A stretch of 64,000 nt of DNA from Eledone cirrhosa. Its lineage: Eukaryota. The position numbers and the translations under genes were made by a program. The notes below the pieces were generated by a model. The model ran no database searches. It was not told the origin of the DNA and saw nothing but the letters and a program-made list of their open reading frames with translations. The stretch lies in assembly GCA_964016885.1 (NCBI GenBank), contig OZ024742.1:52452001-52516000 (forward strand). Reading direction: 5' to 3'. Numbering within the stretch: the first letter of the stretch is position 1; every line of letters begins with the position of its first letter. This document shows, in pieces, positions 1,171 through 59,159 of the stretch.

Positions 1171-1363
1171 GGAAAATGTATGACCCCAACAGCAGAGCTC
1201 AAGCCGTTTCGACGGCTAATTCTAGTCCCGAAATAGCCGTCGAAACGGCTTGAGCCCTGCTGTCGGGGTCATATATTTTCCCATTACCCACTCTACTACC
1301 CTAAGTATTGAGTACTCTGGTGCGTCATGGTCCATCTGGTTCCTTACCACAACTCCTTCGTTA
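1171..1363 (+). mobile_element. Short fold-back non-autonomous element (family A) carrying the 3' half of a hammerhead
   Basis: Inverted repeat 1171-1281. GAAA-CGGC-loop-GCTG-TC^GGGGTC at 1242-1270. Homologous copies at 48661-48790 and 56433-56592. Confidence 0.7.
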
Positions 1364-1390
1364 TATATATATGTATATATATATATATGT

Positions 1391-1590
1391 ATACATTGAT
1401 TTATTATGGCTATTGATGAGCTGTGTTACTCTCAAGTTTCACCTGCGCACTCTCAAGATCAACAGTCATGCCTAATGATCCTGTAAGTACATAGGTACCC
1501 AGAGTAATAAGGCTCATCACCTTGCCATAATAAATTAATATTTAAACTTTACTTCGGTATTGGGTTTTCCTTCTTACATCCATCAATAAT
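1391..1590 (+). mobile_element. Decayed fold-back HHR element (family B)
   Basis: Inverted arms ttattatggc...gccataataa. Decayed cores CTAATGA-T-CCTG..TAGG-T (+) and CTGTTGA..CAGG-T-GAAACTTGAGAGTA (-). Similar to 57030-57296. Confidence 0.55.
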
Positions 1591-1699
1591 TCACGTACTC
1601 CCAGACCTATTATTTTATTTTACATTAAAATAAAACATTATAAACAACAAAAAAGGAGCATTACATGAAATCCTATATTTACGGACGTAAACGATTACC

Positions 1700-1813
1700 G
1701 TCCTATTATTTGAGACCCTCGGCGGAAATTGAAATCAAAACGTAAAGGACCATAGCTCTATGCAGAAAAGCATATTGTCTCTTGCTCTACAGCCACGAGC
1801 AATCCCCCGCCCT
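1700..1813 (-). mobile_element. Degenerate tRNA-derived SINE (5' part)
   Basis: Similar to the better copies at 23448-23638 and 54511-54704. Confidence 0.6.
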
Positions 1814-2599
1814 ATTGAGGTTAATAAATCTGATCACATTCAAGACAACAGTAAATGGTTTCGAATGCATATTTCTGCAGACCAGAAGGTGGATGATGAG
1901 GCTGAGCTGCAATAGCCTGTGGCTTATGTTAGAAATTTCCTGTGTGCACTTGTCTGATGATACAATATTTGTGTGTGTGTGTATGTGTGTGTGTGTGTAT
2001 GATATATGTATATTGATATATTTGTAAGATTCATATATACATACATAGATACATATAGATATATTCATTCATAAATATCTAGCTTTCTCTGATACACACA
2101 CACACAGACATACACACACATATGAATATATATATGTATGTATGTATATATATATATATATATATATATATATATATATATATATATATATATATACATA
2201 TATATACATATATATATATATATACATATATATATATATATATATATATATATATATATATATATATATATATATATACATATATATATATATATATATA
2301 TATATATAAACAAATAACGAAACGAAATTAAATTTCGTTTCGTTTGTAACTCACTTTTGTATGACTGACGCTTAAACAATTAAGTTAAAAATGTACATCT
2401 ACATATGCATACTGAAATACTAGTATGCATATGAATACACACACGTATACATATGTAGATGTAACAAGTCTTTCACTGGTTACTTTACTGTGAGTAACCC
2501 AGCTATTCTGTATGTAAACACACAGACAAACCGGTTTTTAGAGTCATACTGGTTTTCGAGGAAACACCTTTCCCCTATTCTCCAGAAAGCCAGACAAGG

Positions 2600-2644
2600 A
2601 ATATTGAACTAGTTTCGTTGTTGTTACAACTCATCAGCAATATT
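2600..2644 (-). ncRNA. Minimal type I hammerhead ribozyme
   Basis: Minus strand AATATTG-CTGATGA-GTTGT(AACA)ACAAC-GAAA-CTAG-TT^CAATATT: 7-bp stem I, canonical core, palindromic ACTAGT stem III, GUU site. Confidence 0.9.
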
Positions 2645-3067
2645 TACCTATCTACCGGCCTTTCTGGAGAATCGTAAAAGCAAATATCTTTATATGTTAT
2701 TTCTATAAAAATTAGTCAGTGGGCAGACTAATTTGCATAGAGTGTGAGTACGCACCGGTTCAGCGGAGACGATAAAAACAAATAACGAAACGAAATTAAA
2801 TTTCGTTTCGTTTGTAACTCACTTTTGTATGACTGACGCTTAAACAATTAAGTTAAAAATGTACATCTACATATGCATACTGAAATACTAGTATGCATAT
2901 GAATACACACACGTATACATATGTAGATGTAACAAGTCTTTCACTGGTTACTTTACTGTGAGTAACCCAGCTATTCTGTATGTAAACACACAGACAAACC
3001 GGTTTTTAGAGTCATACTGGTTTTCGAGGAAACACCTTTCCTCTATTCTCCAGAAAGCCAGACAAGG

Positions 3068-3112
3068 AATATTGAACTAGTTTCGTTGTTGTTACAACTC
3101 ATCAGCAATATT
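3068..3112 (-). ncRNA. Minimal type I hammerhead ribozyme (second tandem copy)
   Basis: Identical to 2600-2644, 468 nt away. Confidence 0.9.
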
Positions 3113-3305
3113 TACCTATCTACCGGCCTTTCTGGAGAATCGTAAAAGCACATATCGTTATATGCTTTTTAAAAATAGAAAAGAGAGTATGTATATATAT
3201 ATTTATATATATATATATATATATATATATATATATATATATATATATATATATATATATATATACATACTCTCTTTTCTATTTTTATCACAGGACCGGT
3301 TGAGT

Positions 3306-55840: not shown

Positions 55841-56432
55841 GTTATATAGTTATAGAGGTGCGTATATGCATTTTAATTTATATTTTTAACTATTGTGTGT
55901 CTACCCTGCCTTCCATAGATTCGATACACTGGTGATTTTCCCTTTTTTATTGATGGCACACGATCTCTCTCTCTCTCTCTCTCTCTCTCTCTCTCTCTCT
56001 CTCTCTCTCTCTCTCTCTCTCTCTCGCTCTCTCTCTCTCTCTCTAGAATGTTACCCTTTCAACATATTGTATTCTAAAGAGCTCAGGATTCCTTTTCCTT
56101 TGAGCACATAATTTACAGGGAATAACGAGAGTCTATGGCTCCGTTAATTTATCGTGATATATATATATATATATATATATATATATATATATATTTATAT
56201 ATATATATATATATATATATATATATATATATATATATATATATATATATATATATATATATATATATATATATATATATATGGAAGCCACAAGGAGGAA
56301 GAGGGGATAAAAAAAAGTCCTCAACCCTCCATCCTCAAGCGTGAAACTAATACTTATATCATTTGTACTGCCTCTTTGTTTTTTGTTCTCTGTTCATATA
56401 TATATATATATATATATATATATATATATATA

Positions 56433-56592
56433 TAACAAAGGAGTTGTAGTAAGGAACCAGATAGACCATAACGCACCAGAGTACTCAATACTTAGGGTAG
56501 TAGAGTGGGTAATAGGAAAATGTGTGACCCCGACGGCAGAGCTCAAGCCGTCGAAACGGCTTGAGCTCTGCCGTCGGGGTCATACTTTTTCC
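56433..56592 (-). mobile_element. Family A fold-back element
   Basis: Hairpin 56514-56592 centred on ccgt-cgaa-acgg; tail is the reverse complement of 1281-1363. Confidence 0.75.
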
Positions 56593-56626
56593 TATATATA
56601 TATATATATATATATATATATATATA

Positions 56627-56727
56627 TGATGAAGCCACATAAGCCGATTGTACATTGTTGCATAATATTTGCAGACAGATGGTGCAGTGCACCTTACTGC
56701 TGCATTAGTTCAGCAGAAACTCGAGTC
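56627..56727 (+). ncRNA. 5'-truncated long-stem-II hammerhead at the start of element 56627-56900
   Basis: TGATGA-A-GC...GC-A-GAAAC-TCGA-GTC with palindromic ACTCGAGT; C3 and 5' stem I lost at the (TA)n junction. Confidence 0.55.
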
Positions 56728-57029
56728 CGAGAACCTTATAGGCACCCGTTTTACGTGTGTTGTGTTGAAGCAAATAACTTTGTGTATATTCTGTGTATGC
56801 TCTTGTGTCTACTCTGTATATCTTACATTGCCCATGGAGTGCGTTGAGATACAACCAGTACTGGCATTGATAAATATGCTGGGTCCGTCAACCCTTATTA
56901 TATATATATATATATACATATATATATATATATATATATATATATATATATATATATATATATATATATATATATATATATATATATATATATATATATA
57001 TATATATATATATATATATATACTTATGT

Positions 57030-57296
57030 AGTTGACGGACGAGAGAAAAGAGTACTCACTACCGAAGTTGAGACTAAATATTAATTTTTTATGTTTAAAT
57101 AAAGAGTCTTGATACACTGGAGTTTCACCTGCTTACTCACAGGGTTATCAGACAAAAATATCTGATGACTCTGTGTCTGATGACCCTTTGATAAATAGGT
57201 GAAACTCCAGAGAAACAAACCTTACTATTTCGCCTTAATAAAATAAATATTAAAACTCTACTTCAGTATTGAGTACTCCGTCAACCACATACGGGT
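57030..57296 (+). mobile_element. Family B fold-back element with two decayed HHR copies (57171-57217 +; ~57105-57153 -)
   Basis: CTGTGT-CTGATGA-C-CCT..AGG-T-GAAACTC(CA)GAG; inverted arms gttgacgga..tccgtcaac. Confidence 0.7.
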
Positions 57297-58634
57297 ATAT
57301 GTATATATATATATATATATATATATATATATATATATATATATATATATATGTGTGTGTGTGTGTGTGTGTGTGTGTGTGTGTAGTGACAGAGAAATCT
57401 ATTTTTAGAACAGTTGAGCGAGTTACAAATTCTGAATTTTTAATTAACTTATTTTAAACGGCTTCAGTGCACGTTTTAACAGTGGAAATAGTCCACAAAT
57501 GTGGGTATATACGCCCCTATAGATGTGGAAGGTAGACAGTGGCTGTGTATAGTGTCTCCGATTGAATGTAATAGACAGATATGCATTTTGGCAGTTTAAT
57601 CGCACAAAATTGACAACTGTGCATCATTCGAATTTCATAACCTTAGATTATACTGTATAACTATAGCCGAAATTCAATCTTAGTTTGACAAGGGAACATC
57701 TGATGAGCAATTCTCTTCTCTTGAGATTATCAGTTCTCTACATCAGCATAGCAGTAATTCAAACCCAAATCTACCAGGAAATACTTGCACTGATGTTATA
57801 TTCATTGTTTCTTATATGTCAATCAAAATTTTATTTTCAGGTTTATTAAACGGTTATTGATTAATTCTACTCGATGACCAACTGAGAAATAGTACGGTGA
57901 TGCATTCAATGCTTGGAAATTAAATCCTATATTCCATTAACTTCAGGTTCTGTGTCTTTTATATGCCTCACACACAATTGAAATGACATACTATGTTAAC
58001 TCAAACATGAAGAAGTATTTTAAACGAGATGTCCATTGAGAAAGTCATGTGCTTTATATCCAGTATGATCTTTATTGCGGCATTTCCAATTTTATTTATT
58101 TCCTGCTTTCATAAAAAAAACGAAGCCCACACATTTAAATAAATACGCACAGTCGTGCATAAATATATGTGTGAGTATGTGCGAGTTTTTGCATGTATAA
58201 CTCAAACCCTCATATATAGATGCATGTATAATGATGAATATTATTCTTTCTCACACAGGCGCCATTTCTCTCCCGCTACACACGCACAGACACAAACACA
58301 CGTACGCACACAGACACAAACACCCACTCACATACAGATGTTTGTGTGAATGTTTGTATTATAGATAGATAGGTATAGGTAGATTGAGCGAGAAAGAGAG
58401 AGAGATTGATTGATAGATAGATAGATAGATAGCTTTATGTGTGTGTTGTTGTATTATACATGTCTGTATTTGTTTGTATGAAAGTGTATGTTTATTTATG
58501 TTTACCATATCAAAGCACGCTTTTTCTTCAACAATGACGAATACAATCGGACATTTTATACAAGATACGATCGTCGTTTTTATGGTGGAGATATGTTTTG
58601 TTCAATTATTGTCATTATTTTAATTTGATATATT

Positions 58635-58812
58635 AGGGCGGTGGATTGGCGTTACCGTAGCATGTCGGGCACGCTGCTTCTAGGAAGAGAGTTACGGTTT
58701 TCTACGTTCTGAGTACAACTCCCACCGAAGTTAGCATTATGGGATCGTTAAAATAAAGTAACGCACTGGGGTCGATTTAATCGACTTTCTCTTTTCCCAA
58801 AAGGTTCTTGGC
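58635..58812 (+). mobile_element. SINE (degenerate)
   Basis: gggcggtggattggc..ttctgagtacaactccc..ctggggtcgatttaatcgac. Confidence 0.75.
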
Positions 58813-59128
58813 CTATATATATATATATATATATATATATATATATATACTGTATAGACACACACACACACACACATATATATATATATATATATATATA
58901 TATATATATATATATATATATATATATATATATATATTTGTTTTTGGCACAAGGTCAGCAATTATTCCAGTGTATTACTGGTACTTTATACACTGGGATA
59001 ATTGCTGGCCTTGTGCCAAAAGTATATATATATTATAGTTAAATCAGAAAACAAAAAAAAACAAAAACAAAGCGAAGAGGCAGTTCAAAGTGTTAGTATT
59101 AGGTTTACGCTTGAGAATGGGGGTGGGG

Positions 59129-59159
59129 GACGACGTTTCGGGCATAAGTCCTTCATCAG
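59129..59159 (-). ncRNA. Hammerhead core, stem I unpaired (truncated PLE pLTR-like)
   Basis: CTGATGA-A-GGAC(TTAT)GCC-C-GAAAC-GTC-GTC. Confidence 0.55.

Follow-up and report, generated by a model that had tools for sequence, protein, structure and literature searches.

How did so many hammerhead ribozymes come to lie beside (TA)n microsatellites in one stretch of the Eledone cirrhosa genome, and what machinery copied them there? The stretch (64,000 nt of assembly GCA_964016885.1, contig OZ024742.1, positions 52,452,001 to 52,516,000; hereafter the window) had been interpreted, in a sequence-only reading, as home to non-autonomous ribozyme retroelements in a large radiation, sharing a (TA)n target with co-located Penelope-like elements (PLEs) and mobilised by them in trans. 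This interpretation is partly supported. About 27 hammerhead motifs lie beside (TA)n, six of them behind coding sequence of the Hydra clade of PLEs; the rest appear to be mostly 5'-truncated element ends or gene-less borrowers, and a hairpin module next to the ribozyme would guide their copying. To this reading, drawn from comparison of sequences, we give a probability of roughly 0.68. Hammerheads in PLE ends, TA targeting and retrozymes travelling as PLE passengers are already known, and so is the backbone of our finding, because single motifs, opposite-strand pairs, the U3-A8 core and the hammerhead and (TA)n target of Hydra-1_Obim have all been described; the new parts are ribozymes with a very long stem II and a putative docking hairpin.

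The window is AT-rich, and microsatellites split it into 72 islands (masked self-BLAST). We catalogued 27 type I hammerhead-derived loci. Of these, 13 keep all core letters (CUGANGA, GAAA and UH, or U3-A8, among stems I-III), about 10 of them with plausible stems as well, and the remaining 14 are half or decayed hammerheads. Among 19 sites named in the sequence-only reading (17 listed plus 1171 and 59159), 18 hold a hammerhead-derived motif; at 56627 there are neither GAAA nor stems, and a half motif lies instead at 56546-56592. The families are less unrelated than was claimed, as 57177, 57151 and 1480 belong together, as do 59159 and 56284, 54940 and 55765, and 35822 and 49356.

Motifs of this kind might be chance matches in AT-rich, repeat-rich DNA, and some observations are of the sort that chance would give. 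Just two motifs (2637 and 3105, minus strand) pass a strict type I descriptor, which matched once in 30 shuffles; both score below the Rfam gathering threshold (HH9, 38.6 against 52 bits, among the best 150 of 304 rows), and our relaxed descriptor was tuned post hoc, with the window already inspected. At a score of at least 22, however, the relaxed descriptor returned 16 rows (15 loci) against 0.5 per shuffle, four of the rows (41958, 42959, 50891 and 5922) being treated as chance or unverified, and at a score of at least 30 it returned 8 rows against none in 40 shuffles. An independent covariance model, trained solely on 13 Hydra hammerheads from outside the window, gave 12 window matches at E<=5 and 6 at E<=0.1, and 11 of the 12 are catalogued motifs. 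The position of TA is strand-specific: 17 of the 27 loci have (TA)4+ in the 100 nt that follow the cleavage site and 4 have it upstream, compared with 15% of random sites, although not all of the loci are independent. For the high-scoring set the chance explanation is refuted and we regard it as barely conceivable; the hammerhead-derived motifs of the window are real. If the window is typical, the 13 intact cores in these 64 kb, one selected window, correspond to a density of about 200 per Mb.

In most window motifs stem II is unpaired at its base (position 10.1/11.1). We first took this form as new, but it is the usual one in Hydra hammerheads according to File S2 of PMC8557442, and it occurs in 22 of 57 descriptor matches in our comparison set of 76 Hydra loci from marine metagenomes (best 80 of 188); a U.U variant has been reported from axolotl (PMC7229834). 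A U4C core variant was seen at 17632, 18296 and 48985, that is, in two unrelated insertions, and may be a tolerated variant instead of decay.

By tblastn and profile search we found eight PLE coding fragments in the window, and their motif content places them in the Hydra clade, which is defined by RWK and DKT motifs, a CxCX5C linker, CxxC and CxH motifs and a C-terminal endonuclease (EN) (PMC8557442, section 11). RWK, replacing GxKF/Y, appears as RVRWKA in the open reading frame (ORF) at 10770 and as RLRWRA in that at 38524; DKG is altered to DKT (FDKTK and SDKTN) in ORFs 10770 and 39000; the linker reads CNCR....C in three ORFs and CSCC....C in a fourth; and the motifs flanking the EN occur as CDLC, CRLC or CGLC and as CTH, CQH or CNH. 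The (TA)n target, 3'-end hammerhead, pseudo-long terminal repeat (pLTR) and inversion of Hydra-type elements are all present among the window PLEs. In PLE-A the EN is C-terminal and the N-terminal GIY-YIG domain of Naiad-type elements was not seen. Pfam gave no match for any of 11 PLE ORFs (among 15 window proteins scanned), and the GIY-YIG label is based on the description in PMC8557442 together with alignment.

PLE-A (9328-14026, plus strand) is a frameshifted Hydra element composed of an inverted 5' piece (9328-9503), a pLTR (9502-10593) and a main copy (10602-14026), with U3-A8 hammerheads at 10523 and 13956. PLE-B (14229-15211, plus) is a C-terminal/EN fragment whose 3' end is bounded by (TG)n, where we looked for a hammerhead and found none. 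Decayed hammerheads accompany the EN fragment PLE-C (33457-34500, plus; core 34424), the EN remnant PLE-D (37066-37435, minus; core 37121) and the 5'-inverted PLE-E/F (37726-40367; core 37791, minus), in which the reverse transcriptase (RT) part is on the plus and the EN part on the minus strand; the likeness of PLE-F to Hydra-1_Obim was judged by eye from supplement text. PLE-G (49176-50231, minus) is a weak EN remnant with a 3' untranslated region (UTR) of about 735 nt and hammerhead 49356. Six motifs (10523, 13956, 34424, 37121, 37791 and 49356) sit behind Hydra ORFs, in keeping with the PLE-terminal location proposed before, whereas 17232, assigned to the same class, has no coding remnant nearby in a Hydra profile search. 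The longer copies carry frameshifts; with their reading frames broken, the co-located PLEs are therefore not the present drivers.

A motif common to unrelated window families, then traced clade-wide, links the gene-less pieces to these elements. Of 28 metagenome Hydra elements, 22 have twin bulged hairpins (GCUC...UUGAGCAC) downstream of the hammerhead. The sequence TYGAGYAC, which forms the 3' arm, follows 22 of 28 nonredundant outside hammerheads at 50-84 nt past the cut (0.09 expected per 250 nt) and is strongly strand-biased, with 85 sense and 8 antisense occurrences. The layout is RCUC, variable stem, loop, stem, 2-nt bulge and GAGY, and the hairpin is usually doubled at a spacing of 54-82 nt (24 cases). 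In an alignment of 27 rows, three of them from the window, 88.8% of the cells are paired and 30 cells show two-sided changes (0 of 500 shuffles; slid controls all far lower), the covariation being located in the inner three pairs. Three metagenome loci (L017:556-640, L052 and L063) have hairpins with another bulge, UA or AA for UU, comparable to that at 44595 in the window.

A model built from the alignment places the hairpin in PLE-A (10661-10698, plus) and in the 1171, 57177, 34826, 48985, 55765 and 17632 families (E 3e-6 to 2.9), and versions at 44595 and 41342 were read by eye. About seven ORF-less families in the window thus keep a cis hairpin of the Hydra clade, which argues for mobilisation by Hydra machinery; the claim of movement in trans stands to that extent, but not for the frameshifted local copies as its source. 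Copies 17242, 35822 and 36300 stop short of the expected hairpin position. Separately, a Hydra-type hairpin at 31917-31946 (plus; E 0.055) lies in a 458-bp island between TA tracts that is possibly PLE-derived, and no hammerhead was found near it.

The hairpin is also placed consistently with respect to the insertion ends. Among informative copies, defined as having one end at a microsatellite while another copy reads through, 9 of 10 cases picked by eye end 3-11 nt ahead of the first hairpin (3, 11, 3, 3, 3, 8, 5, 6 and 5 nt), compared with 9% of random sites, and often at a TATA-like stretch. We consider it likely, from this spacing and the covariation, that the hairpin docks the RT and sets the start of copying. 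It could alternatively be a DNA element, serving as promoter or nuclease-recognition site, or a signal for stability or translation in the 5' UTR, with the AU stretch alone priming nearby ends. The hairpin does lie within the 5' UTR of read-through copies (10661-10698), its outer helix is nearly invariant, and a tail is required for EN recognition in the Drosophila virilis element (cited in PMC11167929). Yet the free covariation of the inner stem speaks for folding as a single strand and against a DNA element, and the 3-11 nt spacing holds in unrelated families; we judge these alternative roles doubtful, though worth keeping in mind.

One family stands apart as a non-LTR retrozyme. An ORF-less 468-bp unit, 35% GC, is repeated in tandem at 2308-3186 (minus), with intact type I hammerheads in two consecutive units (2637 and 3105) and copies 98.7% identical over 395 bp. 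Its head-to-tail joint (2775->2310) reaches depths of 6203 and 7059 in two contig sets from one sample, read depth here not being copy number, and is covered by 674 and 485 reads in two restriction-site-associated DNA (RAD) runs, where loose ends were ignored as mostly low-agreement chimeras. Nine contigs of the family have TA-like loose ends at 2373-2378. A matched change in stem II replaces T-A by A-T (411/580 with 404/554; 129/293 with 127/285), and no core changes were present among 40 of the 79 variant rows. By these sequence features the family is multi-copy and head-to-tail and fits the definition of a non-LTR retrozyme. The Hydra hairpin was not recognised in the unit, which may rely on a different PLE clade or also be propagated as a satellite.

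Might most of the short elements, then, be circular-RNA retrozymes spread through self-cleavage? As circles, the 468-nt unit and two further ORF-less units (534 and 564 nt) have more stable folds than shuffled sequences (z -15.9, -6.1 and -4.0), 13 cores are intact, and the 468-bp family shows the compensatory change. Tandem units, however, were seen in three families only, and hammerhead mutants still insert in vitro (PMC11167929). The 1171 family, moreover, has half a ribozyme at each of its three loci, which fits a dispensable hammerhead: a fold-back element at 1171-1361 (plus), with the 3' half of the motif (GAAA, stem III, GUC at 1264 and the 3' strand of stem I), an inverted arm at 1171-1217 and a bulged hairpin at 1290-1315; a further copy at 48670-48783 (plus); and a fold-back half-hammerhead at 56435-56592 (minus) with its hairpin at 56477-56514. 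We therefore think spread as circular RNA quite improbable for most short elements.

The 564-bp unit (40978-41836, minus) has a U3-A8 hammerhead at 41342 with a 45-nt stem II region and a long stem III, and its hairpin lies 5 nt past the short end; the 534-bp unit (44342-45211, minus) has hammerhead 44595 with a stem II of 51 nt and a hairpin variant, GUUC/GAAC, 3 nt past the short end. Both are 1.4-unit tandems with an inverted arm, which is the PLE insertion pattern, and each holds one whole motif, so that two consecutive units with complete hammerheads were not found. They are likely non-autonomous PLE derivatives, as judged by this arrangement, and not active retrozymes.

The other short elements include several pairs of hammerheads placed head to head. 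At 17503-18389 the U4C hammerheads 17632 (minus) and 18296 (plus) face each other, the minus arm continuing into the hairpin (17503-17552) and the plus arm stopping 3 nt before it. A pair at 55200-56156 (55446, minus, and 55765, plus) has intact cores, stem II regions of 38 nt, 7-bp stems I and III, and hairpins at 55607-55653 (minus), 55702-55728 (minus) and 56081-56107 (plus), and the diverged pair 57151 (minus) and 57177 (plus) at 57023-57294 has a hairpin after each hammerhead. A decayed pair at 1396-1560 (core 1472, plus) is related to the 57177 family. Among the single motifs, the near-intact 17242 (17234-17288, plus) has A.A at the base of stem II and (TA)n 49 nt downstream. The U4C hammerhead 48985 (48911-49087, minus) lies 29 nt from (TA)n, with a hairpin on the opposite strand at 49022-49057, and hammerhead 59159 (59111-59167, minus) has an intact core and a broken stem I, with a second, decayed copy at 56284-56394. 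Other decayed hammerheads are at 3297-3365 (plus; core 3314, long stem I), 34818-34949 (plus; 34826, U4A, followed by a degenerate hairpin) and 54868-54948 (minus; core 54941, G12 lost, related to 55765).

Most of these short pieces are, on their sequence, indistinguishable from ordinary 5'-truncated PLE 3' ends, and a large radiation, as it was claimed, is not borne out, although the 468-bp unit does qualify as a non-autonomous retroelement. A stricter view would treat everything as debris of autonomous PLEs, that is, 5'-truncated 3' ends with inversions and no independent non-autonomous families. In its favor, six motifs follow Hydra ORFs, the 735-nt 3' UTR of PLE-G suffices for ORF-less pieces such as 35143-36000, and comparable single and opposite-strand motifs were described earlier (PMC4209133). 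The ORF-less 468-bp unit with its head-to-tail joint at high depth, and the 534-bp unit repeated with no coding sequence, speak against it, and we find this view unlikely.

In some families of this lineage stem II appears to have grown to 91-107 nt with the core retained. Hammerhead 36300 (36148-36310, minus) has an intact core and a 91-nt stem II, the PLE-G hammerhead 49356 one of 99 nt, and hammerhead 35822 (35812-36000, plus), which is related to 49356 and has a U3-A8 core, one of 107 nt; the elements of 36300 and 35822 end at (TA)n. The three regions fold as rods (z -5.4, -4.8 and -2.9 for 91, 99 and 107 nt) that close at or close to the base of stem II, and in all three motifs stem III is palindromic and (TA)n follows the cut at 44-65 nt. 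Stem I of 35822 differs from that of 49356 by two compensatory changes, and U3-A8 in one motif corresponds to C3-G8 in the other. Intermediate stem II regions of 38-51 nt occur elsewhere in the window. In the metagenome Hydra hammerheads the distance between the core halves is 10-29 nt in 52 of 57 descriptor matches, and the other five (127-192 nt, scores 24-27) look spurious. The upstream part of the 35822 element has weak homology to the PLE-G 3' UTR (z 3.1). In the Hydra profile search, one coding remnant was linked to the long-stem motifs, a weak Hydra-like match of 13 bits with 72% DNA identity to PLE-C; an origin of these motifs as Naiad "HHR_half_core" ends was considered and, given that remnant, is not preferred. 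No description of hammerheads with such a long stem II was found in literature searches. They show that surveys based on descriptors or on Rfam give counts that are too low: no hammerhead among the best 150 of 304 rows reached the Rfam gathering score.

How might such insertions arise? In the scheme we propose, the RT/GIY-YIG protein would bind a tandem (or circular) RNA at the twin hairpins located downstream of the hammerhead, and the nuclease would nick a (TA)n tract. The nicked DNA would likely anneal to a short AU-rich stretch, located 3-11 nt before the first hairpin, and copying would begin internally at this stretch and run back via the hammerhead into the body of the element. Priming could occur on both target strands, at the short site on one and further downstream on the other, so that the copies would lie head to head and one of them would carry an additional tail. 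The module would make any RNA that bears it copyable, allowing ORF-less units of 160-560 nt to spread in trans, and the hammerhead itself would likely be optional for insertion. A bolder version, which we hold only tentatively and at somewhat less than even odds, is that the clade-wide twin-hairpin signal docks a telomerase-like RT dimer, sets both starts, accounts for both the tail and the choice of (TA)n as target, and licenses ORF-less passengers. In cephalopods it would then have seeded a very dense population of hammerheads, as yet unannotated (about 200 intact cores per Mb if the window is typical), including the variant with a 100-nt stem II, which escapes standard models.

Several points weigh against our reading. 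Five of the 27 rows of the hairpin alignment are misaligned, and the mostly invariant outer GCUC/GAGC helix could be a sequence motif. The end-to-hairpin cases, besides being chosen by eye, include 1171 and 56592 from one family and exclude the ambiguous L019; the PLE-A end, 25 nt before the hairpin, is an exception, and ends running beyond the hairpin are also common. The hairpin was unrecognised in the 468-bp unit and in the 59159, 54940 and 3314 elements. The 564-bp junction contains a TA-like remnant, so that two insertions are possible, and the copy survey covers the 468-bp family only. For the long stems, the descriptor gave five long-spacer false positives at scores 24-27 in 229 kb, and local folding assigns a low ensemble probability to stem I in both 36300 and 49356. 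From published work, the priming site of the Poseidon element PAc has no homology to the target (PMC11167929), unlike the AU-annealing step proposed here, and just one of nine Xenopus retrozymes was cleaved in vitro (bioRxiv 2026.07.22.740005).

The window contains further elements. A minus-strand fragment of a long interspersed element (LINE) encoding RT lies between TA tracts at 19467-20960 (Pfam RVT_1, DUF6451) and is presumably RTE-like. An 890-bp element at 32287-33176, with 99-bp terminal inverted repeats and a weak HTH_32 match, is probably an internally deleted Tc1/mariner-like transposon in TA. The ORF at 51993-52802 (minus) combines a Cys/His knuckle with the pattern of a restriction-like nuclease, has no Pfam match, and we take it to resemble the C-terminus of site-specific non-LTR elements. 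A family of about 200 bp, resembling a short interspersed element, is present at least seven times, several of the copies being fold-backs (21118, 23289-23668, 26850-27081, 28612-28821, 54499-54726, 58612-59037 and 59910-60018). Related ends of 170-200 bp at 41853-42067 and 43113-43311, 90% identical and directly after TA, look like DNA-transposon termini, and a 137-bp tandem repeat is present in three copies with 92% matches at 61164-61580.

Among cephalopods, hammerheads and related elements have been noted before. Hydra-1_Obim of Octopus bimaculoides has a (TA)n target and a hammerhead (PMC8557442, supplement), the giant squid genome lists 235 Hammerhead_1 matches (PMC6962438), and a repeat study of Octopus vulgaris describes a PLE expansion with 31 recently active PLE families and leaves ribozymes unmentioned in the text searched (PMC13282606). 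Our literature searches found no survey of hammerheads in octopus or cephalopods. The same searches did not find the hairpin in print; in the main text of PMC8557442, "hairpin" and "stem-loop" occur 0 times. How PLEs choose their RNA, start internally and target microsatellites has been addressed in vitro for one element only. A hairpin that is short, covaries, recurs across the clade and keeps a fixed distance to the ends of insertions would offer both a target for mutation and a marker of non-autonomous passengers.

Compared with the published Hydra-clade PLEs (Craig et al. 2021, PMC8557442), those of the window share the short ORF, RWK, DKT, CxCX5C linker, C-terminal GIY-YIG and (TA)n target, as well as the type I hammerhead with a stem II often unpaired at its base, partial tandems and inverted 5'-truncated copies. 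They differ in the many diverged families within 64 kb and in a stem II of 91-107 nt as opposed to the short ones of File S2, and the main text of that paper mentions neither the twin hairpin nor a relation between it and the insertion ends. PLE hammerheads and dimers have been reviewed (PMC6765202), and single PLE motifs are widespread, with opposite-strand pairs 100-700 bp apart (Cervera and de la Peña 2014, PMC4209133). Those motifs and ours have in common type I folds, a palindromic stem III, U3-A8 covariation, heterogeneous singles and opposite-strand pairs, whereas their consensus has G10.1-C11.1 and a stem II of 7-8 bp and the window motifs are mostly unpaired at 10.1/11.1, some with very long stems. 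The 468-bp unit resembles animal non-LTR retrozymes (Cervera and de la Peña 2020, PMC7229834; bioRxiv 2026.07.22.740005) in being ORF-less, tandem and high in copy, with a hammerhead per unit; no cephalopod retrozymes appear in the text of these two sources as searched. That retrozymes are non-autonomous PLE derivatives was argued earlier (Li, Clavereau and Pollet, bioRxiv 2026.07.22.740005), and unlike the published retrozymes, the other ORF-less units of the window are tied to one PLE clade by insertion structure and a cis hairpin. The closest mechanistic comparison is with Poseidon PAc of Anolis (Frangieh et al. 2024, PMC11167929), in which RT starts internally at two stem-loop sites in vitro, both target strands are extended, the tail is optional and hammerhead cleavage is unneeded. 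The PAc starts lie at an AC-rich stem-loop inside the ORF, whereas the Hydra ends lie upstream of a conserved UTR hairpin at a TA-like stretch; common to PAc and the scheme proposed here are two internal starts downstream of the hammerhead, a stem-loop, the use of both strands and an optional tail.

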